IMG/VR virus record: IMGVR_UViG_3300037454_000906 | Span: 128,001-192,000 of that record | Direction: 5' to 3' (one strand) | Origin: a virus | DNA length: 64,000 nt | In this document: one piece after another, positions 419 to 58,202 of the stretch | Layout: every line of letters starts with the position of its first letter | Position numbering within the stretch: the stretch's first letter is position 1 | The notes under the pieces: model-generated | What the model saw: only the letters and a program-made list of their open reading frames with translations | Databases searched by the model: none | What the model was told of the DNA's origin: nothing | Position numbers and translations under genes: made by a program

Positions 419-1801
419 GTCAACTACCCACGCCCTAAAGGGCGTGAGCTTGTACGGCTCCCGTTGTTACCGCAGGGAGGCTTATGTACGATTGGGCGGT
501 TGACATACACCCTGCCTTCCAAGTTCTCAATGCACCATCAAGGGGCGTCTTGAACGAGGAAGGATGTTTGCTCTTCCGAGCTATATTGATTGCGGCATTC
601 CAGTCGGCATCCAGGACAGTACCGTTCTTGCAATAGAATCTACGATTCTTGCGAGTACCTTCCTTCTTGCCGGTGGTGCAATCTGTTTGGCTTGTCATGA
701 ACGGAGAAACCGTTTCCACTGTCTTACCGTACAGCGGTGCCTTGTATGACAAAATTTGCTTGAACTTGTAGAATGGAATTTGGTACATCCTACGATTATG
801 GGATTTCCGTTTGAATCCCTCTTTAGACTTTGAAGTCTTCTGCTTAATTCCGCTTAAATCTTCCATTACGATAATGGAAGCCGCTGTGCTTTGAATTACC
901 GCATTGGCAATCTTTCTGCACATATCGGTAGACTGGTTATGTTCCTTGATGGATAGCTTACGAAAATGCCTATGAGCTGACTTGGTTCCTTTCTTCTGCA
1001 AGCATCGTTTCAAGTAACGTAGTTTGCGTTTACGCTTGTTATATTCCTTGTCATGGAACATGATGCCATCGGAGGAAATTGCGAAACGGCGTTCGCCCAT
1101 ATCCAATCCGATGCAGTTGTCATCATATAGAGGTACATCGGGAACATTGAATGTTATCGAAAGGAAGAAACGCCCATTTCGCATGAAAATCAACGGGTCG
1201 GCGGTGGTATATTGCACAAACAGCGACTCCAGCCTGTCATAGCCGACCATATCCGCTACGGCTCTTTTGCAAGCCTTGCCGGAGCACAATGCAATGCTCT
1301 TGCGATTGAACTTGGAATACAGCCGCTTGTCCAGCCTCATTGATAGACCATGCTTTTCTGGTATTTTGTGCTTCTTATGACCGTTGCTCTTGATGGAACG
1401 AAATGCCGATATACATTCCTTGTATATTTTGATTACGGCTTGGCTTGGAATTGTTGGATATTCTTCTCGGAGAATATCATACACGGCTTTATGGACTGAA
1501 CGCAAGTCTATATGGACATTGTTGGAATCTAATATGTTAGCACACTTGTTATAGGCTTCCCTGGACAATGCAAGAATACTAGACCAGTATTCGTGGTCTT
1601 CCTTGGTACGGAACCGTATCTCTGCATTGTAGGTCAGTTCTACCATATAACTTTCACCCGTGTTCACCTATAAGTTTAGATAATTTCGGTTTGCAAAGCA
1701 AGTATTTTAGGCACAATATTGGAATAAATTGTTCCCAAAGTGTTCTCGTGGGCATTCCTATGCCGCCCTAAAGGGACGGCATCTTCCTACCCACTCTTTC
1801 T
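419..1801 (-). mobile_element. Non-autonomous IS200/IS605-family element (tnpB only, IS1341-like); TAM TCAC
   Basis: Left end (minus strand): TCAC|agaaagagtgggtagGAAG then hairpin atgccgtccc-TTTA-gggcggcat, with guide GAAG at +16..+19 as in IS608. Right end: CAAG, hairpin ctcacgccc-TTTA-gggcgtggg, then tagtTGAC. Both guide/cleavage-site pairs fit IS608-type pairing rules. Sits between convergent kptA and glf. Confidence 0.85.
435..1667 (-). CDS. tnpB: RNA-guided endonuclease TnpB
   Basis: RuvC motifs GLDMG, VMEDLS, DADWNAAINI; basic helix RKLRYLKRCLQKK; degenerate Zn ribbon; ORF runs into the right-end hairpin. Confidence 0.9.
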   Translation of the reverse strand: MNTGESYMVELTYNAEIRFRTKEDHEYWSSILALSREAYNKCANILDSNNVHIDLRSVHKAVYDILREEYPTIPSQAVIKIYKECISAFRSIKSNGHKKHKIPEKHGLSMRLDKRLYSKFNRKSIALCSGKACKRAVADMVGYDRLESLFVQYTTADPLIFMRNGRFFLSITFNVPDVPLYDDNCIGLDMGERRFAISSDGIMFHDKEYNKRKRKLRYLKRCLQKKGTKSAHRHFRKLSIKEHNQSTDMCRKIANAVIQSTAASIIVMEDLSGIKQKTSKSKEGFKRKSHNRRMYQIPFYKFKQILSYKAPLYGKTVETVSPFMTSQTDCTTGKKEGTRKNRRFYCKNGTVLDADWNAAINIARKSKHPSSFKTPLDGALRTWKAGCMSTAQSYISLPAVTTGAVQAHAL

Positions 1802-5319: not shown

Positions 5320-5702
5320 ACCACAAGGAATGGATTCTCCATGAAGTCGAGGAGGCCGAACGGCGTTATTGGACCTTCGGTGTCCATTTCGGTTGCGGAA
5401 TCGAGCAGCTTTTTGCCGATCTTCCATATGAGTTCAAACTGAATCCATCAAAGGAATTTATGGCCAAGTATGCCGGCGCGGTAGAACGGTACCTTCCGAT
5501 AACCCCGGTCGCCCCGCCACCTCGACTCCGACCGGGTACCCTGGAATATGTCATAGAGACCACCGAATACGGCCACGTCATGAAAGAAATGTATGACCTG
5601 GGGATAGAGCTTTCCGTTGAGTCGATTCGGGACTATATTGATGGTATTCGACGCGCAGACTGGGCTCGACGCGCGGCCCGGGCATCACTTTCCACCATAT
5701 AG
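5316..5702 (+). CDS. hypothetical protein
   Basis: GTGA overlap with upstream stop. Confidence 0.6.
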   Translation: MNHKEWILHEVEEAERRYWTFGVHFGCGIEQLFADLPYEFKLNPSKEFMAKYAGAVERYLPITPVAPPPRLRPGTLEYVIETTEYGHVMKEMYDLGIELSVESIRDYIDGIRRADWARRAARASLSTI

Positions 5703-6386
5703 TTCACGGAGGGATTTGGGAAATTCCACCGGACCGGCAACCGGGGTAACGCCTATTATGTGGTTCGCCAGCAGGTCCGGATGTCGCCTTTCATTGCGAT
5801 TCCTCGGTACGTTCGGAATTTTCAGGGAATCATCCGGAAACATTGGGGGAAATTTTCTACATCCGCGTACACGGGGACGTTCGAATGGAACAATATCCCG
5901 ACTCGTTCTGCACAGTTCCTTGCGGTAAGCATCGGCCTCAGCTTTCCTTGCCGTGGCAAGCTCATCCAGGAGATTGAGATATCTCCTGTATGCCTCGACG
6001 TTCCTGCGGAACACGATGCGGTCGCCGCAGATGGTATATTCGCCGAATGCCGGGGAACCCCCGTCCGCGCCATGTGCCGTGTCACAGATGAACACCGGAA
6101 CGTCTATGTAGCCACCCCACTGCCCGAATGATTCGTTAACCATGCCCACCGCGTCGGAGCAATCCCCCGGATGGAGTTCCCAACGGTAACTGTGCATGAA
6201 ATCATGTATCCGGGTGAACCTCCCGGGCACCTCGTCGTTATGCGCATCCACCAGGTAGATTTGCTTATCACCGTAACGGCGGCAGATGTCCCGGAGTTCG
6301 CCGCAGGTAATCTGGTGATATTCTCGACCGAGTGACCTGATTTCGGTCCTTATTTCGTTGCTTTTTCTCATGGTTATCCCCAACAA
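5685..6386 (-). CDS. hypothetical protein
   Basis: 233-aa ORF abutting the upstream gene. Confidence 0.6.
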   Translation of the reverse strand: MLGITMRKSNEIRTEIRSLGREYHQITCGELRDICRRYGDKQIYLVDAHNDEVPGRFTRIHDFMHSYRWELHPGDCSDAVGMVNESFGQWGGYIDVPVFICDTAHGADGGSPAFGEYTICGDRIVFRRNVEAYRRYLNLLDELATARKAEADAYRKELCRTSRDIVPFERPRVRGCRKFPPMFPDDSLKIPNVPRNRNERRHPDLLANHIIGVTPVAGPVEFPKSLRELYGGK

Positions 6387-16673: not shown

Positions 16674-17303
16674 TCAGTCTTCGTTGGAAGTCTCATCTTC
16701 TTCCGGCTCATCCTCTTCGGGTTCAGGTTCTGCCTCGTACCAGTGGACTCCGATGTTCTCTTCGTTGTATTCGAGGAACGGCCACCCGAAACTGTCCTCG
16801 CAGTTGAACTCGTCTCCGTCCGGACCGTAGTCGGGTGAGTACACGAACTTGGAATACGTGTCCTTATGTTCCACCTCTGTGTCGTTGATGATGGTAGTGT
16901 AGGTATATTCAAAACTCGTGAGCAGTTCCGGACAATTCTTCTCGACCCATTCGCGAGGAGCCGATACCAGATAGTTCTGGCTCATATCGATGTAGCCACA
17001 GCGGACACAGAGCTTGTTTTCCTTCACCCATTCCTCGTTGCGAAACGTCTGGTTGAGGTCGTTTCCTAGCCACTTGCGGAAGTTCTCGGTCGGAGGATAG
17101 TCTTGGCCGTACATCCAGTTGTTCACCGAGAAATAGATGATACCGCTGTCCATACGGTTAAAGTCTTGAAGCACGGCGTCCGGCAACCAGTCGGAATCGA
17201 ACAAGTGTTCGGAGCCGAATAACTTGTCAAGCTCGTATAGCACGTTCTGCGGGGTGTAGAGCCTGGAAAGCAGCTCCATCGAGAACTTCGTCCGATAAAT
17301 CAT
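16674..17303 (-). pseudogene. 3' portion of a phage gene split by IS607 (may be translated from an IS-supplied ATG at 17303)
   Basis: Joins in frame with 21808-21698 across the shared CGG core: ...NVIRDTR|TKFSMELL...; acidic C-terminus. Confidence 0.65.
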
Positions 17304-17305
17304 TT

Positions 17306-18697
17306 CTACACATTTCTACCAATTAAATATGTATTGGTGATTTCTTGCTTCATCGCCATGCACTGCTCTTGTGTTTCAAAGAACTGCAACCTCATGTCTT
17401 TGGGGCTGGTGTAAACCATACCTTCCCGATAGGTGACACATTGTATGTCGCCGTGGGGGCAAGCATTCGCAACGGAATTGTCGCTTACGGTGTATCTCAC
17501 CGCATTGTCATTAGTCGGGACTACTAGGTTTAGTAGCCACAGGCCATAGAACTGCAAGTTCCTGGCTGCATTGTAATCTCTGTCATGGTGATGCCCACAT
17601 ACCGGGCATACCCATTCCCTGTCATCCAGGGCCAAATCCTTGTTGTAGTATTGCCCGCAATGCGAACAGTAACGGCTAGAAGCGTAGAACTGCGGAGCGA
17701 AGAACAGCAGTATGCCTAGCCAAGCACACTTGTATTCCAGGAACTGCCGCATCCTACCGAAGTTGGCATCGAGGATAGCGGAGGCCAGCTTGTGATTTTT
17801 GGACATATTCTTCGGCTTCAAGTCTTCAAGAACAATAGCTTTTGGCTTCGTATGCTTTGCGAGGTCAGCCGTAAGCTGGTGAGCCGCATTGACTCGGATA
17901 TTGGTTATCCTTCTGTGGATTCTAGCCAGCAACTTGCGGCACCGTTCACGGTTCTTGGAGTGTTTCTTCTTGCGTGATAATGCTCGCTGGAATCTGCGGA
18001 GTCTAGCCTTTGCGTGTCGGTAGGCTTTCGGGTTGGTGTAAACGATACCGTCGCTAGTGATTGCTAAGTCCTTCACACCGAAATCGACGCCTACGATGTC
18101 CTGCTCATCGAATGAGGAGATAGATTCGTGGAATGGAACGATGTCAGCCACATAGGCGAAGGAAACATACCACTTCCCAGCAGCATCGACCGATACTGTC
18201 GCCATTGCAAGCGGTATCTTCTCGGAATCCTTCGGAATCTTGATGTAGTCCTTCTCACGGAGCTTAATTCTGCCGAGGGTAGGTATCTGTACGAAATCAC
18301 GACCGATGAACACCCCACCGGAGCAGCGGAACGAGTTGTCCTGGTTATATCGGTGGAAGCGTGGGTGCTTGGCTAGACCCTTGAAGAACCGCTTCCATGC
18401 GGAGCCGAGGTCGATGAGGGCTTCCTGGCCGCAGAACTTGGAGACTTCCGTCATCCACTTGTTATCAGGGAGCTTCTTGTAGATGCACCATTCCTTGTGC
18501 CAGTCCCTCGGCGTTCCGAGGGTGCATTTGACCTTCTCGCCTTCCGGCGTGTTGACCTTGGCTTCCTCGTAAGCCTTGTTCTGCTCGGCCAGTTTCCAGT
18601 TGTAGGCACGGCGGGAAACGGCACACATACGGTACATCGTCCGTACCTGTGCCTTGCTCGGTTTCAAGCATATCTTCCTTCCGCACTGCTGTTCCAT
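17306..18697 (-). CDS. tnpB: RNA-guided endonuclease TnpB (IS607 type)
   Basis: HTH_OrfB-like N-terminus; GVDFGVK, VLEDLK, CSHCG...CPVCG, DRDYNAARNL; C-terminal extension over the presumed omegaRNA region. Confidence 0.9.
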   Translation of the reverse strand: MEQQCGRKICLKPSKAQVRTMYRMCAVSRRAYNWKLAEQNKAYEEAKVNTPEGEKVKCTLGTPRDWHKEWCIYKKLPDNKWMTEVSKFCGQEALIDLGSAWKRFFKGLAKHPRFHRYNQDNSFRCSGGVFIGRDFVQIPTLGRIKLREKDYIKIPKDSEKIPLAMATVSVDAAGKWYVSFAYVADIVPFHESISSFDEQDIVGVDFGVKDLAITSDGIVYTNPKAYRHAKARLRRFQRALSRKKKHSKNRERCRKLLARIHRRITNIRVNAAHQLTADLAKHTKPKAIVLEDLKPKNMSKNHKLASAILDANFGRMRQFLEYKCAWLGILLFFAPQFYASSRYCSHCGQYYNKDLALDDREWVCPVCGHHHDRDYNAARNLQFYGLWLLNLVVPTNDNAVRYTVSDNSVANACPHGDIQCVTYREGMVYTSPKDMRLQFFETQEQCMAMKQEITNTYLIGRNV

Positions 18698-18707
18698 AAC
18701 TTAGCCC

Positions 18708-20780
18708 TTATGCTGCATCAGCGTAAGCCCACTTATAACCACCGGCAGTTTTATTACGCCCAGTTAATACTTCATGTATAGAAGATGTATGGATACCTAC
18801 GGCATCCGCAGCGGCTTTAATAGAATCGTAAATTTGGACGACATGATTATTTTTAGATATCTGTTTAATAGCGCGTTTTGTATTTTTGGGCTTATAATTC
18901 ATACCAGGAAATACAATATCGCTTATCGGGGTTGTGCTGTATGCCCATACATATCCGCCCGCCATGTGGTGTTCGCCCATCAAAACTTTTCGAATTGATG
19001 TTACTGATACTTTGCATTCACGCGAGGCTTCATTAACTGACCCAAATTGGTTAATACGGTCACCATCTAAGTTGTATTGAATCACAGGCCGTTTAGAAGA
19101 TGGTGGGATATATTGGCTCCCTGGAAATTTAATATCAGATATATCGGTCGTACTATATGCCCAGACATAACCACCTGCCGTCATTGCATCCCCTCTAAGA
19201 ACTGAACCAATGTTAGATTGTGCTATTCCAACCGCCTTGGCGGCATCCTTTATTGAATTATATTGGCGAATAAGTGTTCCATCATAATTATACTGGGAAA
19301 CTGGTTTTCTCGGTCGAGATTTCGAACGATAATCATAACCAGGAAATACGATGGTTGCTTTAGGAACCGATTCATATACCCACACATAGTTTTTTAATGT
19401 TCTCTGACGGCCAGATAAGCATTCGCAAATGGCACTTGTTTGTACATCGACTGCCCTAGCAGCCGCTGCAATAGAGACATGAGTCGCAACAAATTTACCA
19501 TCCAAAGTATATTGGCATACTCGCTTGGGTGCCGATAAGTTGTCAGAAAACCATTCATCAATCCAGCCTCGCTTACTACAATGGTCTGCCAGTGTTTTAT
19601 AGGCATCCCTAAATTCGCGTCGTGTATTGAATTGCATTGCATAATGGTAAGCATCGTCCTTAGACATATTAGACCACATACCATTGTTCGATTTCTTTAA
19701 TTTCAACCAAGGAAACTTTCCGCGAAGATGCTTATGACAAATAGAGCTATATAATCCTGGATACGCTTTTGCAAAGTCGTTCCAATACTTGAACGGCTTA
19801 GCCACTTTCAGTAATTTTGGCATTGTCCATTTACCAAAGCCAATGCTACCCATACTTCCGCCTCTTGCCTTATTTAGCAGAGTCCACCCTAAACTTCGAT
19901 ATAAAGCAATCATCTTGCATTCCATTTCCCCATGCTTATCGCCCTTTGTCTTTATTGCAAATGTGGCAAGAATGCGAGGCTCCGGTATCGAGACGCCAAT
20001 AGATTTAGCATATTGAACAATAGAATCGTTATCGTTATGACAATGGTCGTAATGGCGGCGTTTTAGGTCGATAGTTCTACCAATGTATGCTACATTCGTC
20101 ATCGGAAATTCATATACATATACGGTATCATATAGTAAACCATTCTTATAGCCATTAGATTGTTCCAAGAATGCTATTTTTTCGTGCCAATGATTTTTAG
20201 ATACAACAGAATACATACCCGGATATTTTTCGCGGAAATACTTGAGGGTAGGGCATTGCTTCGCCGTATTAACTATCACTTCTTCCGTATATATCCGTCT
20301 GCGTTCGATTTCTTGCCGACGAGTTGTGAGTGCATCTTGTAGTCCAAGTTTGTCTAGCCATTTTTCTCTAACAGCAATTCTATACATCTGGGGTTCAGCT
20401 TGCTTAAAATCTATTCGTTTACAGCAGCCAGCTGCTAATAATTTATCCACAACAGCTTTACATTTTTCAAAAGTAATTGCAGTTTTTCTCCAATGATATT
20501 CAGGTATCCATTTATCAAGCCATCCAGACCGCATAGCTTTATAATATGCAGCATGGTCCATTTTGAAGAACTCGGTTCTAGTTTTGCATTGTTTGGCAAT
20601 GTTATGACAGGTGTCATAATCCAAGGTTTTGAATACAGTATGGGGTATGAGAGTTTCAATCCATCCCATTTTGCATGCCTTGCGATATGCTTGCCTATCC
20701 AATCGCTTAAACTCATAGCGAGTGTTACACTTGCTTGCCGATGCAAGACAGGTTTCATAATCTAACTTTCTATTAGTCAT
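18708..20780 (-). CDS. GIY-YIG homing-endonuclease-like protein with six ~40-aa helical repeats and four NUMOD1 domains
   Basis: VYVYEF...AYIGRT..LKRRH..H...EME...LLN (GIY-YIG); four repeats K/RxVxQYxxDG...SIxxAA.......I...L.G...TAGGYxWxY; visibly AT-rich versus flanking tnpA/tnpB. Confidence 0.8.
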   Translation of the reverse strand: MTNRKLDYETCLASASKCNTRYEFKRLDRQAYRKACKMGWIETLIPHTVFKTLDYDTCHNIAKQCKTRTEFFKMDHAAYYKAMRSGWLDKWIPEYHWRKTAITFEKCKAVVDKLLAAGCCKRIDFKQAEPQMYRIAVREKWLDKLGLQDALTTRRQEIERRRIYTEEVIVNTAKQCPTLKYFREKYPGMYSVVSKNHWHEKIAFLEQSNGYKNGLLYDTVYVYEFPMTNVAYIGRTIDLKRRHYDHCHNDNDSIVQYAKSIGVSIPEPRILATFAIKTKGDKHGEMECKMIALYRSLGWTLLNKARGGSMGSIGFGKWTMPKLLKVAKPFKYWNDFAKAYPGLYSSICHKHLRGKFPWLKLKKSNNGMWSNMSKDDAYHYAMQFNTRREFRDAYKTLADHCSKRGWIDEWFSDNLSAPKRVCQYTLDGKFVATHVSIAAAARAVDVQTSAICECLSGRQRTLKNYVWVYESVPKATIVFPGYDYRSKSRPRKPVSQYNYDGTLIRQYNSIKDAAKAVGIAQSNIGSVLRGDAMTAGGYVWAYSTTDISDIKFPGSQYIPPSSKRPVIQYNLDGDRINQFGSVNEASRECKVSVTSIRKVLMGEHHMAGGYVWAYSTTPISDIVFPGMNYKPKNTKRAIKQISKNNHVVQIYDSIKAAADAVGIHTSSIHEVLTGRNKTAGGYKWAYADAA

Positions 20781-21429
20781 TAGTAACCTCGCTTATTGTT
20801 TTAGCTTCTTTTCGTTTCTTGCGGTTCTCCTTACCGCGTCTGCTGTATAGTTTCGCCGAGAAGACGGCAAGGAGTGACAGCATGTCCTTCACCAGGTCTG
20901 CCTCGAACGACTCGCTCAAGACGGACTCGGTATATTCCACATCGACCCCGTGGGAGCGGAAGTATTCGACCAATAGATTGTAGTTGAACCTGGTCAGTCG
21001 GTCGTAGTGCTCGATAACCACCTTGTCGAACTTGTGCTCGGCAGCGAGACGCATCATTCGGAGCAGCTTCTTGCGGTTGTCGTTCAGACCCGAACCCACT
21101 TCCTCGAAGATTTCCACCACCGAATACTTCTTGCTGACGCAGTATTCCATCAGGCGGAGCTTCTGACGGTCAAGGTCTCCGTGGGACTTTTGGTCGGAGG
21201 TCGATACTCGGCAGTAGATGACCACACGGGTTCCGGCCTTGTTTTCAACCTCCGGTTCATCCACCTTCTCGCCCAGGTAGCGGCGAAGGTCGTCCTCGTC
21301 CCAGCGTCTATTCCCGCTCTTGCCGGAGCGGTAGACCTTGAACTTGCCTTCTTCCGTCCATCTGCGAAGAGTGTTCGGGCAGCAGCCGAGAATATCGCAG
21401 GCAGCCTTAGTTCTTACTTTCTTCCCCAT
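20773..21429 (-). CDS. tnpA: IS607 serine recombinase/transposase TnpA
   Basis: MerR-like HTH (AACDILGCCPNTLRRW), YCRVST catalytic Ser, EVGSGLNDNRKKL, EHYDRLTRF, DLVKDMLSLL.VFSAKLYSRR; start reassigned to MGKKVR. Confidence 0.92.
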   Translation of the reverse strand: MGKKVRTKAACDILGCCPNTLRRWTEEGKFKVYRSGKSGNRRWDEDDLRRYLGEKVDEPEVENKAGTRVVIYCRVSTSDQKSHGDLDRQKLRLMEYCVSKKYSVVEIFEEVGSGLNDNRKKLLRMMRLAAEHKFDKVVIEHYDRLTRFNYNLLVEYFRSHGVDVEYTESVLSESFEADLVKDMLSLLAVFSAKLYSRRGKENRKKRKEAKTISEVTND

Positions 21430-21589
21430 CTTCCACCTCGATACCCATATATTCGGCTGCGTTGTCGAGATACTTCTGGAACTCTTCCAAGGTCGGAAGA
21501 GGGTCAATGTCCAGCATCATCGGCTGGATGGTGCCGTCTTCCAGCTCAAACTCGTCTTTAGTCAGTCGCACTACTTTCATACGCTTCAT
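21407..21589 (-). CDS. small acidic ORF at IS607 left end, overlapping tnpA start
   Basis: 60 aa, AAGGA RBS, inside element bounds. Confidence 0.55.
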   Translation of the reverse strand: MKRMKVVRLTKDEFELEDGTIQPMMLDIDPLPTLEEFQKYLDNAAEYMGIEVEDGEESKN

Positions 21590-21655
21590 TGTGGTTGTCC
21601 TTGATAAAGTTTATAGCGTGATGACTAAAATATAGTTAATTTTTGGTAGAAAAGG

Positions 21656-21808
21656 TTAGAAATTATGAAAAAATTTGTTTACAGTTGACTTCCCAGTCCG
21701 AGTGTCGCGGATGACGTTGCACCACGACTCCGTCGACTTGTCGAGCGCGATTTCGAGAATACCTTCCCACTTGTCGATAAGCGGTTTGAGCATTTCGGGT
21801 GTAATCAT
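21656..21808 (-). pseudogene. 5' portion of IS607-interrupted gene (37 native codons, then reads into the IS end)
   Basis: GGAGG RBS, MITPEML...DTR then junction CGG at 21700-21698. Confidence 0.6.
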
Positions 21809-21988
21809 ATATACCTCCAATTTCATTATACGCAGTCCCAGAGATACTCTTCGATAATCCCTGCGGCATCCTACTAAATTACACGTTAATTTTAAAACAA
21901 TCGAGCGTGGTTGGATTTTAACCAACATCTGAGTCCAATAAGGACATTCCGCACTCTCCTACAGCATTTAACTGCATTAACACTTGTG

Positions 21989-54348: not shown

Positions 54349-55620
54349 CTACCCACCGGCTAAAGACCGGTGGGTTTCGGTAACCACCGGTGCAACCAGT
54401 TGAATTTCCCGCATCACAGCACCGCTGCTTTTTAGGTCACAAAGACGTTCATCCACAGTTGGGTTCTCCGCAAGGCATAGCGGTCGCAAGACCACGGCTT
54501 CCCCGGTTCGCGGGGTACCTTCGTTATCTAGTATTCTAAATCCTTCATCAAGTATGTTCTTGGCAGCATTCCAATCTCTATCTACTAGGCTACCGCAGTC
54601 TGGACATATCCACGCCCTTTCGCTAAGTTTCAATGTATGGTATCTATGCCCGCAGTTGTTGCATAGTTGCGAACTGGGGAAGAACCGTCCTACCTTAACG
54701 ACCGTACGGTTATGCCATTGAGCTTTGTACTCTATCATCTTAGTTAGTGTACCGAGTGCCTGATTGGCCAACGCGCCAGCAAGACAGTGGTTCTTCTGCA
54801 TTCCCTTTATGTTAAGGTTCTCCATACAGATTATGTCATAGTCACGAACTAGCCTGTGTGATACTTGATGAAGGAAGTTATTCCTTCTGTTACCCAGTTT
54901 TTCATGGGCTGTGACAAGTTGAATACGGACTTTCTCGTATCGACTGCCGCCTTTCTTCGCCTTTGCGAGTTTCCTCTGCAAATGCCTAATCTTTCGTTCC
55001 GACTTCTGTTCAAAGTGCGGATTCTTAATTACTTCTCCGTTGGACATCACGATGGACGACTTGATACCGAGGTCGATGCCCACACATTCACCGGTATGCA
55101 ACATCTCAGGTTCATCAACATCACAGCATATTGAGCAATAATAGTCGCCTTTCTTGCTTTTCTTGATTGTAACATTGTAAATTTTAACGATGTTTTCGTG
55201 TTCGAATGTCTTACCGAATCGACACTTGACTGCGCCAACTTTCGGCAGTACAATGGAATTGCCAACAATTAGTTTCTTAATATCCTTGTGGCACATAGCA
55301 TTACGGTAACTCTGTTTGTCCTTCTTGGACTTGTATCTCGGATACTTGGATTTGCCGGTAAAGAAGTTCTGGTAGGCTTGGTTCATATCCATATAGGCAT
55401 TAGCCAATCCTTGTGAGTCAGCCTCCTTCAACCATTCCCATTCTTCCTTAAACGACTTCAATTTCGGCTGGAAAGACATCTTGGTCTCTTCGTAGATATA
55501 TGACTTAATTTTAAGGCACTGGTTATACACAAAACGACAGCAACCGAAGGTCTTTGCAAAGAATACCTTCTGCGCCTTGTTCGGATATAGCTTGATTTCG
55601 ATGCCTTTTTTAACTATCAT
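54349..55620 (-). CDS. tnpB: RNA-guided endonuclease TnpB
   Basis: HTH_OrfB (FFAKTFGCCRFVYN), GIDLGIK, CMENLN, CNNCG...CPDCG, DRDWNAAKNI. Confidence 0.93.
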   Translation of the reverse strand: MIVKKGIEIKLYPNKAQKVFFAKTFGCCRFVYNQCLKIKSYIYEETKMSFQPKLKSFKEEWEWLKEADSQGLANAYMDMNQAYQNFFTGKSKYPRYKSKKDKQSYRNAMCHKDIKKLIVGNSIVLPKVGAVKCRFGKTFEHENIVKIYNVTIKKSKKGDYYCSICCDVDEPEMLHTGECVGIDLGIKSSIVMSNGEVIKNPHFEQKSERKIRHLQRKLAKAKKGGSRYEKVRIQLVTAHEKLGNRRNNFLHQVSHRLVRDYDIICMENLNIKGMQKNHCLAGALANQALGTLTKMIEYKAQWHNRTVVKVGRFFPSSQLCNNCGHRYHTLKLSERAWICPDCGSLVDRDWNAAKNILDEGFRILDNEGTPRTGEAVVLRPLCLAENPTVDERLCDLKSSGAVMREIQLVAPVVTETHRSLAGG

Positions 55621-56975: not shown

Positions 56976-58202
56976 CTACCCACCGGCTAAAGACCGGTGG
57001 GTTTCGGTTCCCACCGTTACCAGTGATGCTTCCTGCTCAAGACAGCTATTGCTGCCAGTATCAACAGGCTTAACCTCTAAGGTTCCCCCAGTCCCTGGGG
57101 TACTTGAATTGTTAAGACGACGACCTTCAACGAGTATGTTGAGGGCTGAGTTCTCGTCCCTGTCCAGCGGTTCTCCACATACAGGGCAAGTCCACTTGCG
57201 GTCTTCGAGAGTAAGTTCGTCGTTCTTGAAATGACACTTGTGACATAGCTTCGTGGACGGGAAGAACATACTTACCTTCAAGTAGGTCCTTCCATACCAT
57301 GCCGCCTTGTATTCCACCTTGTCCAGGAACGAGCTCCACGCAGCATCCGCAATGGATTTCGCCAGCTTGTGGTTCTTCATGAGGTTCCTGACTTTCAGGT
57401 CCTCGGAGTAGATGCATTGGTTTTCTGCAACTAGCTGCCAGGAGACCTTGTGCTGAAAGTCGTTCCGCTGGTTTTTAATCTTCTCATGCACCAATGCCAC
57501 TCGCAACTGCTGCTTTTTGTAGTTGTTCGAGCCCTTGGTGCGGTGGCTTAATTTCCTCTGTTCCTTCGCAAGGCTTTCTTGCGATTTATTAAAATACTTC
57601 GGATTTTCGATAACACATCCATCGGAATCCACAAGGAAATCTTTTAGTCCTAAATCAAATGCAATGTCGTTGGCCGTATGTGGTAGTGAGTTCGGTTCTT
57701 CCACTTCGCAGCATATCGAACAAAAATACTTTCCTGTCGGAGTCTTCTTTATTGTTATGTTCCAGACTTTAATGATGCCTATATTGTTGAAATCATATCC
57801 CTGACGGAATGTGACTGGACCTGCTTTCGGGATGATTATCTTGTTGCCGACCACCAGTTCTTTGATGTCAGAATGCATCATCGCATTACGATAGCTCTGC
57901 TTATCAGTTTTCTTCTTGTATTTCGGATATCCGGTCCTTCCGGAGAAGAAATTCTGGTAAGCAGTATTCATGTCCATGTAGGCATTTGCCAGTCCTTGAG
58001 AATCGGCTTCCTTCAACCACGGCCACTCCTCCTTGAACGAGCGGAGATTTGGTTTGAAGTTCATGTATGTCTCTTCGTATATACAGGACTTCATCCATAG
58101 GCAGTGGTTGTACACAAAACGACAGCACCCGAACGTCTTGTTGAAAAACGTCCGCTGTTCTTGATTAGGATATAGTCGTATCTCAAATGCCTTCTTTATC
58201 AT
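56976..58202 (-). CDS. tnpB: RNA-guided endonuclease TnpB
   Basis: FFNKTFGCCRFVYN, AFDLGLK, YSEDLK, CHKC...CPVCG, DRDENSALNI. Confidence 0.93.
   Translation of the reverse strand: MIKKAFEIRLYPNQEQRTFFNKTFGCCRFVYNHCLWMKSCIYEETYMNFKPNLRSFKEEWPWLKEADSQGLANAYMDMNTAYQNFFSGRTGYPKYKKKTDKQSYRNAMMHSDIKELVVGNKIIIPKAGPVTFRQGYDFNNIGIIKVWNITIKKTPTGKYFCSICCEVEEPNSLPHTANDIAFDLGLKDFLVDSDGCVIENPKYFNKSQESLAKEQRKLSHRTKGSNNYKKQQLRVALVHEKIKNQRNDFQHKVSWQLVAENQCIYSEDLKVRNLMKNHKLAKSIADAAWSSFLDKVEYKAAWYGRTYLKVSMFFPSTKLCHKCHFKNDELTLEDRKWTCPVCGEPLDRDENSALNILVEGRRLNNSSTPGTGGTLEVKPVDTGSNSCLEQEASLVTVGTETHRSLAGG

Follow-up and report, generated by a model that had tools for sequence, protein, structure and literature searches.

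Why should an IS607-family transposon carry a second nuclease gene between tnpA, the gene for its serine recombinase, and tnpB, the gene for its RNA-guided nuclease? The question is raised by a stretch of 64,000 nucleotides (the window) that corresponds to bases 128001–192000 of the 253-kb IMG/VR virus record IMGVR_UViG_3300037454_000906, for which CheckV gives a completeness of about 99%. The best-matching sequencing run for this phage is a bovine gut metagenome, which together with the length of the record points to a jumbo phage from the rumen. A megablast search with the element region against deposited phages gave no match. A preliminary description of the window had recognized one IS607 transposon with a GIY-YIG/NUMOD1 nuclease between tnpA and tnpB, and saw in it either a homing endonuclease that parasitizes the transposon or a dual-nuclease element. 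The composite itself is supported by an empty target site and by its recurrence elsewhere, and the comparison with related loci favours the homing-endonuclease passenger over the dual-nuclease element. Probably, then, a homing-endonuclease gene resides in a fixed slot of an IS607 element, giving nested selfish elements within a jumbo phage. The genes follow each other in this order:

21407..21589, minus strand: small acidic open reading frame (ORF), 60 aa, overlapping the start of tnpA
20773..21429, minus strand: tnpA, IS607-type serine recombinase, 218 aa, with the ATG at 21429 as the likely start
18708..20780, minus strand: GIY-YIG nuclease, 690 aa
17306..18697, minus strand: tnpB, 463 aa, with OrfB_IS605 and Cas12f1-like_TNB domains

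The co-orientation and tight coupling of these genes, already pointed out in the preliminary description, are borne out. The ATG of the nuclease gene overlaps with the stop of tnpA (..GTTACTAATGACTAA), and tnpB starts exactly 10 nt past the nuclease stop. The nuclease gene is also AT-rich as described, with a GC content of 0.40 compared with 0.53 for tnpA, 0.51 for tnpB and 0.52 for the entire phage.

To collect related loci, metagenomes were scanned with the nuclease family and viral sequences with TnpA. The order small ORF, tnpA, GIY-YIG gene and tnpB is repeated in L062, L065, L067, L068 and L095 together with the 10-nt spacer between nuclease and tnpB; in all, at least six further assemblies, drawn from different studies, show the layout. 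It occurs in two IS sublineages with TnpA proteins that are ∼60% and TnpB proteins that are ∼63% identical. The element ends in L065, L067, L068 and L095 match those of the window where present, and the flanks are unrelated. A 35-kb contig from another study (X2) shares the order and the spacer and has ends at 17290 and 21695, equal to those of the window, and in it 1,166 other nucleotides take the place of 18713–20804 (2,090 nt in the window). Of the sequencing runs with small shares, X2 and X5 alone entered the evidence, and stretches left uncovered by contigs were not counted. In L068, a 473-kb contig, a second and shorter member of the nuclease family (180-aa ORF at 92–634) lies about 4.4 kb upstream of the left end of the composite element. 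No homologue of the nuclease family was found in 185,579 species genomes. A single-protein pattern scan of IMG/VR for the nuclease returned nothing, and an alignment-based scan returned mostly NUMOD-only relatives.

The contents of the slot vary independently of the element around it. Two features describe this:

18713..20804, minus strand: replaceable cassette, at the limits of which the likeness of near-identical IS copies stops (other breakpoints in blastn alignments are 18741–18749 and 20767–20841)
18698..18735, minus strand: conserved 3' end of the cassette plus 10-nt spacer, ..TAYGCTGATGCRGCATAA GGRMTARNNN ATG, which in the window reads GGGCTAAGTT

Among the window, L062, L065 and L067 the TnpA proteins are 95–99% and the TnpB proteins 96–97% identical; the nucleases share only 31–78% identity and are 442, 500, 545 or 690 aa long. 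Nucleotide identity drops sharply right after the TnpA codons ..KKRKEAK and returns about 25–50 nt before the nuclease stop. Every nuclease allele has a GC content of 0.37–0.47 versus 0.50–0.54 in the flanks. Copies of the nuclease gene also stand alone among unrelated phage genes in L061 (78% identical) and L063 (53%), and the stretch of cassette that L061 has in common with the window begins 13 nt ahead of the ATG and ends about 6–8 nt past the stop. Just upstream of the L061 copy (L061:1060–1130) lies a tRNA-like T-arm sequence (GCAGGTTCGAAGCCTGC), at which ARAGORN called no tRNA. In a maximum-likelihood tree of 23 members of the nuclease family the six IS-resident alleles are interleaved with free-standing copies and require at least four context switches, which are forced by well-supported branches. 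The nuclease gene thus behaves as an independently circulating cassette in a fixed slot, since near-identical backbones differ in allele, close relatives are free-standing and a sister IS has no nuclease.

The tail of the cassette is conserved. It is present, with the spacer, in all six IS-resident alleles, including those that are only 33% identical, and is likely to carry the ribosome-binding site of tnpB. The free-standing copy in L061 keeps this tail through the first 8 nt past the stop (GGACTATA); it is missing from L063, L064 and L069.

The sister IS without nuclease is L096, which provides the comparison with and without cargo that the preliminary description had called for. Its genes are the small ORF, tnpA and tnpB, and here it is the ATG of tnpB that overlaps with the stop of tnpA. 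To the L095/L068 sublineage, which carries the nuclease, it is 82–85% identical in nucleotide sequence on both sides of the slot. Many more distant relatives are canonical tnpA–tnpB elements. Phages G001 and G003 contain cargo-free or tnpA-less elements and no nuclease homologue. The phage of the window and G002, both searched whole, have their sole copy of the nuclease family inside the IS. It is the replacement of cassettes between near-identical IS copies, together with the free-standing relatives and the distinct GC content, on which the passenger interpretation is founded.

Several observations weigh against this interpretation. No target of the nuclease can be deduced from the sequences and no recent gain or loss of cargo has been caught. 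L096, the sole cargo-free relative, is no closer to its sisters with cargo than the 82–85% given above, and the recovered loci include no copy from the window's own sublineage that lacks the cargo. Composites are rare, with only 2 in IMG/VR. The tnpB 5' sequences of cargo-bearing and cargo-free elements show no consistent difference, so that an obvious self-immunity polymorphism is missing. Finally, two sublineages with TnpA only ∼60% identical have both kept the slot, the spacer and the final ∼25 nt of the cassette. This leaves room for co-adaptation, and a long-standing, possibly co-adapted association fits it as well as parasitism does.

The same conservation is the starting point for an alternative that we consider possible, yet clearly the less probable of the two: the nuclease could be a co-adapted third component of the IS lineage, which would make the element a two-nuclease, two-tier gene drive. 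TnpB and its guide RNA (omega-RNA) would cut the vacant locus and restore the element at whatever site is occupied. The GIY-YIG enzyme would cut a constant sequence, which might lie in the genomes of rival phages, in tnpA-less elements or in cargo-free tnpA–tnpB elements, and repair would turn the reduced elements into full autonomous copies, raising the inheritance of the full element in co-infection. The fast turnover of alleles would reflect an arms race over the GIY-YIG target. Such a role agrees with what both sublineages have kept, namely the gene architecture, translational coupling and the 10-nt spacer, with a cassette tail retained even in alleles that are 33% identical, with the sole nuclease-family copies inside the IS in the window's phage and in G002, and with the parallel order of transposase, GIY-YIG nuclease and Fanzor1 in a giant-virus Mariner element (PMC3627910). 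Against such a role, the alleles are exchanged freely and are polyphyletic relative to the free-standing copies, and every copy has a foreign GC content. There is also a sister without cargo, along with many canonical tnpA–tnpB relatives, and nothing links the nuclease to transposition chemistry.

Possible conversion targets for such a drive are provided by the tnpA-less elements, which share homology in the left end and in tnpB on either side of the tnpA–GIY-YIG block. These elements, composed of a left end (LE), a structured leader of ∼110 nt, tnpB and a right end (RE), occur in L002, L003, L006 (twice) and L007. Their leaders are at 5870–6000 in L002, L003 and L007, and at 5870–6000 and 12340–12471 in L006. 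Each leader consists of two hairpins with loops that are mutually complementary and covary (GTGGTAGTT/AACTACCAC in L002, GTGAGAGTC/GACTCTCAC in L003, GTGGTGGTT/AACCACCAC in L006 and GTGGAAGTC/GACTTCCAC in L007). In the window element, coupling of tnpB to the nuclease gene takes the place of this hairpin leader, which is lacking. In L005 an element of the tnpA-less type with a 98-aa ORF is inserted in the tnpA of another copy at CGCTGGGAC, which means that the family can insert into its own transposase gene. Here, a second LE that is 92% identical to the first breaks tnpA after codon 46 (L005:5098–5204 and 5490–5596), and the nested site resembles the window target CTGGGACGA.

What the nuclease looks like bears on a further possibility. 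The 690-aa protein is laid out as four helical repeats, a GIY-YIG core (residues ∼215–305), two more helical repeats and four NUMOD/I-HmuI-like modules, which agrees with the domains assigned in the preliminary description. The four I-HmuI_NUMOD-like/NUMOD1 stretches are detected by Pfam (E = 1e-29). The Pfam match to GIY-YIG falls slightly under the cut-off (20 versus 22.6 bits), and this assignment is supported by residues Tyr221, Tyr223, Tyr232, Gly234, Arg242, His246, Glu287 and Asn303, which are invariant across 53 nuclease homologues, and by its fold. In the AlphaFold (AF2) model (mean pLDDT 85) the core superposes on the catalytic domain of I-TevI (PDB entry 1ln0, chain B) with a TM-score of 0.71 on the target and a Foldseek probability of 0.94. 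Foldseek E-values are poor for the whole beads-on-a-string model, and the TM-score per target and the probability were used instead. The six helical repeats of ∼40 aa end near residues 40, 87, 141, 198, 355 and 406 and match the small DNA-binding fold of PDB entry 8b6e; the NUMOD-type modules match I-HmuI (PDB entry 1u3e). Residues 416–615 resemble the DNA-binding part of T4 MobB. A profile of the nuclease gave only marginal matches when compared with the PDB by sequence.

Since the catalytic residues are invariant, the enzyme is likely to be active; the preliminary description had reckoned with an inactive nuclease, of which there is no sign. About ten DNA-binding modules around the catalytic core suggest a long and specific target. 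The GIY-YIG motif, the DNA-binding modules and the polymorphism of the locus are, at the level of sequence, those of a free-standing homing endonuclease. The protein could also be ordinary cargo that serves the phage without homing, through degradation of host DNA, exclusion of competitors or anti-defence. Viral transposons do carry nucleases and methyltransferases (PMC3627910), and the flanking genes offer no functional clue. We nevertheless regard this explanation as improbable: arrays of NUMOD/I-HmuI-type and helical DNA-binding modules, like the resemblance to MobB, are what one typically finds in site-specific homing enzymes, and the exchange of cassettes at one fixed position marks a mobile nuclease gene.

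The genes tnpA and tnpB, with the nuclease gene between them, belong to one inserted unit. The borders of this unit are given by the following features:

17292..21693, minus strand: complete IS607-family element, 4,400 bp, with an empty site in L072/L073
21600..21696, minus strand: LE; it contains a cTGGG that resembles the target and target-adjacent motif (TAM), the GG core and repeats similar to TnpA sites, and, upstream of the small ORF, a likely promoter (..TATAAACTT..)
21643..21666: LE arm of a subterminal inverted repeat, with two GTAGAAA-type motifs
17299..17322: RE arm of this repeat, with two GTAGAAA-type motifs
21656..21928, minus strand: N-terminal part of the phage gene that the element interrupts, with the final 11 codons and the stop supplied by LE
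16674..17303, minus strand: C-terminal fragment of this gene, 205 codons, with an in-frame ATG within RE (ATGATTTATCGGACG..)

In two related phage contigs, L072 and L073, both flanks of the window element are directly joined and the target site is uninterrupted. Window positions 21817–21691 align to L072 2875–3001, and 17293–16693 to L072 2999–3593. The empty site reads ..GGACTGGGACGAAG..; when occupied, the LE junction is ..CTGGGA|AGTCAAC.. and the RE junction ..TTATCGGA|CGAAG.. (ATCGGA|CGAAG). A single insertion of 4,400 bp at a TGGG site therefore accounts for the element, with GG(A) common to both ends. It occurred at cTGGGA; GGA is found at both junctions and comparison of the occupied with the empty site reveals no target-site duplication. 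The borders are ambiguous inside the common GGA (21693–21691 and 17293–17291). LE homology among six loci begins at GGG in the alignment, and six other LE junctions have GGG, mostly preceded by T. An LE of identical type is present in the tnpA-less elements too. The inverted repeat (I1, the first listed within the element) is 24 nt long with arms that are 83% complementary, and L005 has an equivalent subterminal pair. The split phage gene is a 266-aa ORF with no assigned function that is intact across the empty site in L072 (2821–3621) and in L073.

An artefact, either an assembly chimera or a tnpA and a tnpB from two adjacent unrelated elements, is accordingly very unlikely. It might be suspected from the existence elsewhere of tnpA-less LE–tnpB–RE elements and of a separate small ORF–tnpA unit (L002), and from the fragmentation of Logan contigs inside tnpB. 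The empty site, though, defines one insertion, bracketed by subterminal inverted repeats, and the four-gene unit with equal ends recurs in the other assemblies noted above. In addition, one contig from the probable source run spans 18647–21595 and bridges both nuclease junctions. Both of these doubts had been raised in the preliminary description, and neither survives. A scheme was rejected that took the relatives for tnpB-only elements bordered on the left by the ATG, which might have made tnpA and tnpB separate elements: about 240 nt upstream these loci have an LE of their own. The empty site settles that tnpA and tnpB form one unit. In the source run X1 a Logan contig links 18698 and 21615 on opposite strands (depth 10.8, shorter side 43 nt). 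This join could be an inversion variant of the tnpA–nuclease block or a repeat artefact and is given no weight here.

The enzymes of the outer element are those of an IS607 transposon. TnpA has an N-terminal helix–turn–helix (HTH) and a C-terminal catalytic domain with the motif YCRVSTSDQ. Pfam places HTH_17/MerR at residues 32–78 and Resolvase at 95–235 (E = 3.5e-24), and the best PDB matches are the catalytic domains of IS607-family TnpA (PDB entries 6dgc and 6dgb). These residue numbers refer to the 244-aa ORF starting at TTG that is listed for tnpA: the tnpA assignment of the preliminary description is confirmed, but the listed ORF is longer than the likely gene of 218 aa. The small ORF upstream is kept with the IS, being 100% identical in L065 and L067 and 63–80% identical in L002, L005 and L068; Pfam, PHROGs and Atlas give no lead to its function. 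TnpB aligns with ISDra2 TnpB (E = 2.5e-50) and its RuvC D/E/D motifs (VDFG, LED, HDRD) are aligned and intact. The 3' end of the element adds two features:

17292..17530, minus strand: predicted omega-RNA scaffold, from the 3' part of tnpB through RE
17272..17291, minus strand: predicted guide-matching flank, ACGAAGTTCTCGATGG.., directly 3' of RE

The C-terminal ∼75 codons of tnpB overlap the guide-RNA scaffold. In the final ∼240 nt of the element, nucleotide blocks are kept across lineages that are only ∼65% identical overall, and 13 of the 42 predicted pairs show compensatory changes. Both are what is expected for an omega-RNA scaffold. Contigs from a bovine metatranscriptome (run X20) sit exactly on 17317–17495 (omega-RNA) and 21554–21704 (LE/promoter) with zero mismatches, a weak hint of expression for which DNA carry-over may account. 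The flank directly 3' of RE is identical to the sequence that follows TGGG in the empty site, and a guide read from it would match vacant sites in sister phages. The rule by which the guide is taken from the flank comes from work on IS607 (10.1101/2023.11.20.567912), in which TnpA inserts with a TGGG/GG core and without target duplication, and TGGG is also the TAM of the TnpB; the anatomy of the window element agrees with this published behaviour. The sequence features by which IS607 elements are recognized are all present: the TnpA domains, the GG core without duplication, and the TnpB RuvC domain with its omega-RNA scaffold. Six more distant TnpB-like genes (24–28% identity) are present in the phage, three in the window (582–1175, 54493–55605 and 57015–58184) and three elsewhere in the genome (18566–19207, 28603–29853 and 109032–109721); tnpA and the nuclease of this family are single-copy there.

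With a homing-endonuclease passenger as the preferred explanation, the locus can be pictured as two layers. In the outer layer, TnpA would excise and integrate the element at TGGG via the GG core, by the chemistry of its family. TnpB, with the omega-RNA derived from the element's own 3' end, would cut the vacant site (TGGG then ACGAAGTTCTCG...), and recombinational repair would copy the element back, or into co-infecting phages. In the inner layer, the nuclease is probably translated in series with tnpA and tnpB, because its ATG overlaps the tnpA stop, tnpB follows 10 nt on and the cassette tail holds its likely ribosome-binding site. Its most likely substrates would be IS copies that lack the nuclease or carry another allele, cut near the tnpA/tnpB junction, with repair using tnpA and tnpB as homology arms. 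The nuclease would thereby hitch-hike on transposon and phage alike.

The preliminary description knew of no described example, and a full-text literature search likewise yielded no account of a GIY-YIG or NUMOD nuclease within IS607. Compared with the IS607 family, including the work on CboIStron, the window element shares the small serine recombinase with N-terminal HTH and the downstream TnpB, the GG core at both ends, the TGGG target/TAM without target duplication, the subterminal repeat motifs and the guide-RNA scaffold overlapping the 3' end of tnpB. It differs in having a 2.1-kb GIY-YIG gene between tnpA and tnpB, which overlap in canonical elements, and an extra conserved 60-aa ORF upstream of tnpA.

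The inner gene resembles the free-standing GIY-YIG and HNH homing-endonuclease genes of T4-like phages (Seg and Mob proteins, such as MobB). Common features are a GIY-YIG core with NUMOD-type DNA-binding modules, AT-richness, a tight position between two conserved genes, the signals of which overlap or nearly abut, and presence/absence and allele replacement among close relatives. Here, by contrast, the flanking 'host' genes are the transposon's own tnpA and tnpB. In the protein, six extra helical DNA-binding repeats surround the catalytic domain, which is located centrally and not at the N-terminus.

The nearest precedent for a composite of IS607 and GIY-YIG is the PGv-1 Mariner of Phaeocystis globosa virus, in which a transposase, a GIY-YIG nuclease and a TnpB-like Fanzor1 follow in order (Bao and Jurka 2013, PMC3627910). 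That element has a DDE transposase and TA duplications and resides in a eukaryotic virus. Its nuclease is a 291-aa protein with an N-terminal GIY-YIG domain, and it is a single-copy element with no evidence for cassette turnover.

IStrons are IS607 or IS605 elements joined at the 5' end to a group I intron that splices the element from the host transcript, and group I introns often host homing endonucleases. They share with the window element a second selfish module nested within a TnpB-bearing IS, which here is a protein-coding nuclease cassette, and the interrupted phage gene stays split. Between LE and the small ORF there are only ∼100 nt, AT-rich and promoter-like, into which a group I intron would not fit, so that the element is not an IStron (no dedicated intron scan was run).

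IS607 elements and GIY-YIG homing enzymes are each known; what is new is a homing-endonuclease-type gene inside IS607. TnpB elements home by an RNA-guided nuclease and homing-endonuclease genes by protein-guided cutting, and both are found here in one small element. The GIY-YIG family has long modular DNA-binding arrays, and its alleles probably differ in specificity. Should the less probable two-nuclease drive be correct, protein-guided and RNA-guided nucleases would be co-adapted within one element. Natural variants are at hand for comparison, namely different alleles of the nuclease, a sister without cargo, derivatives without tnpA and a target site that is empty. With these, cooperation versus competition of layered selfish elements in phage populations becomes directly testable.

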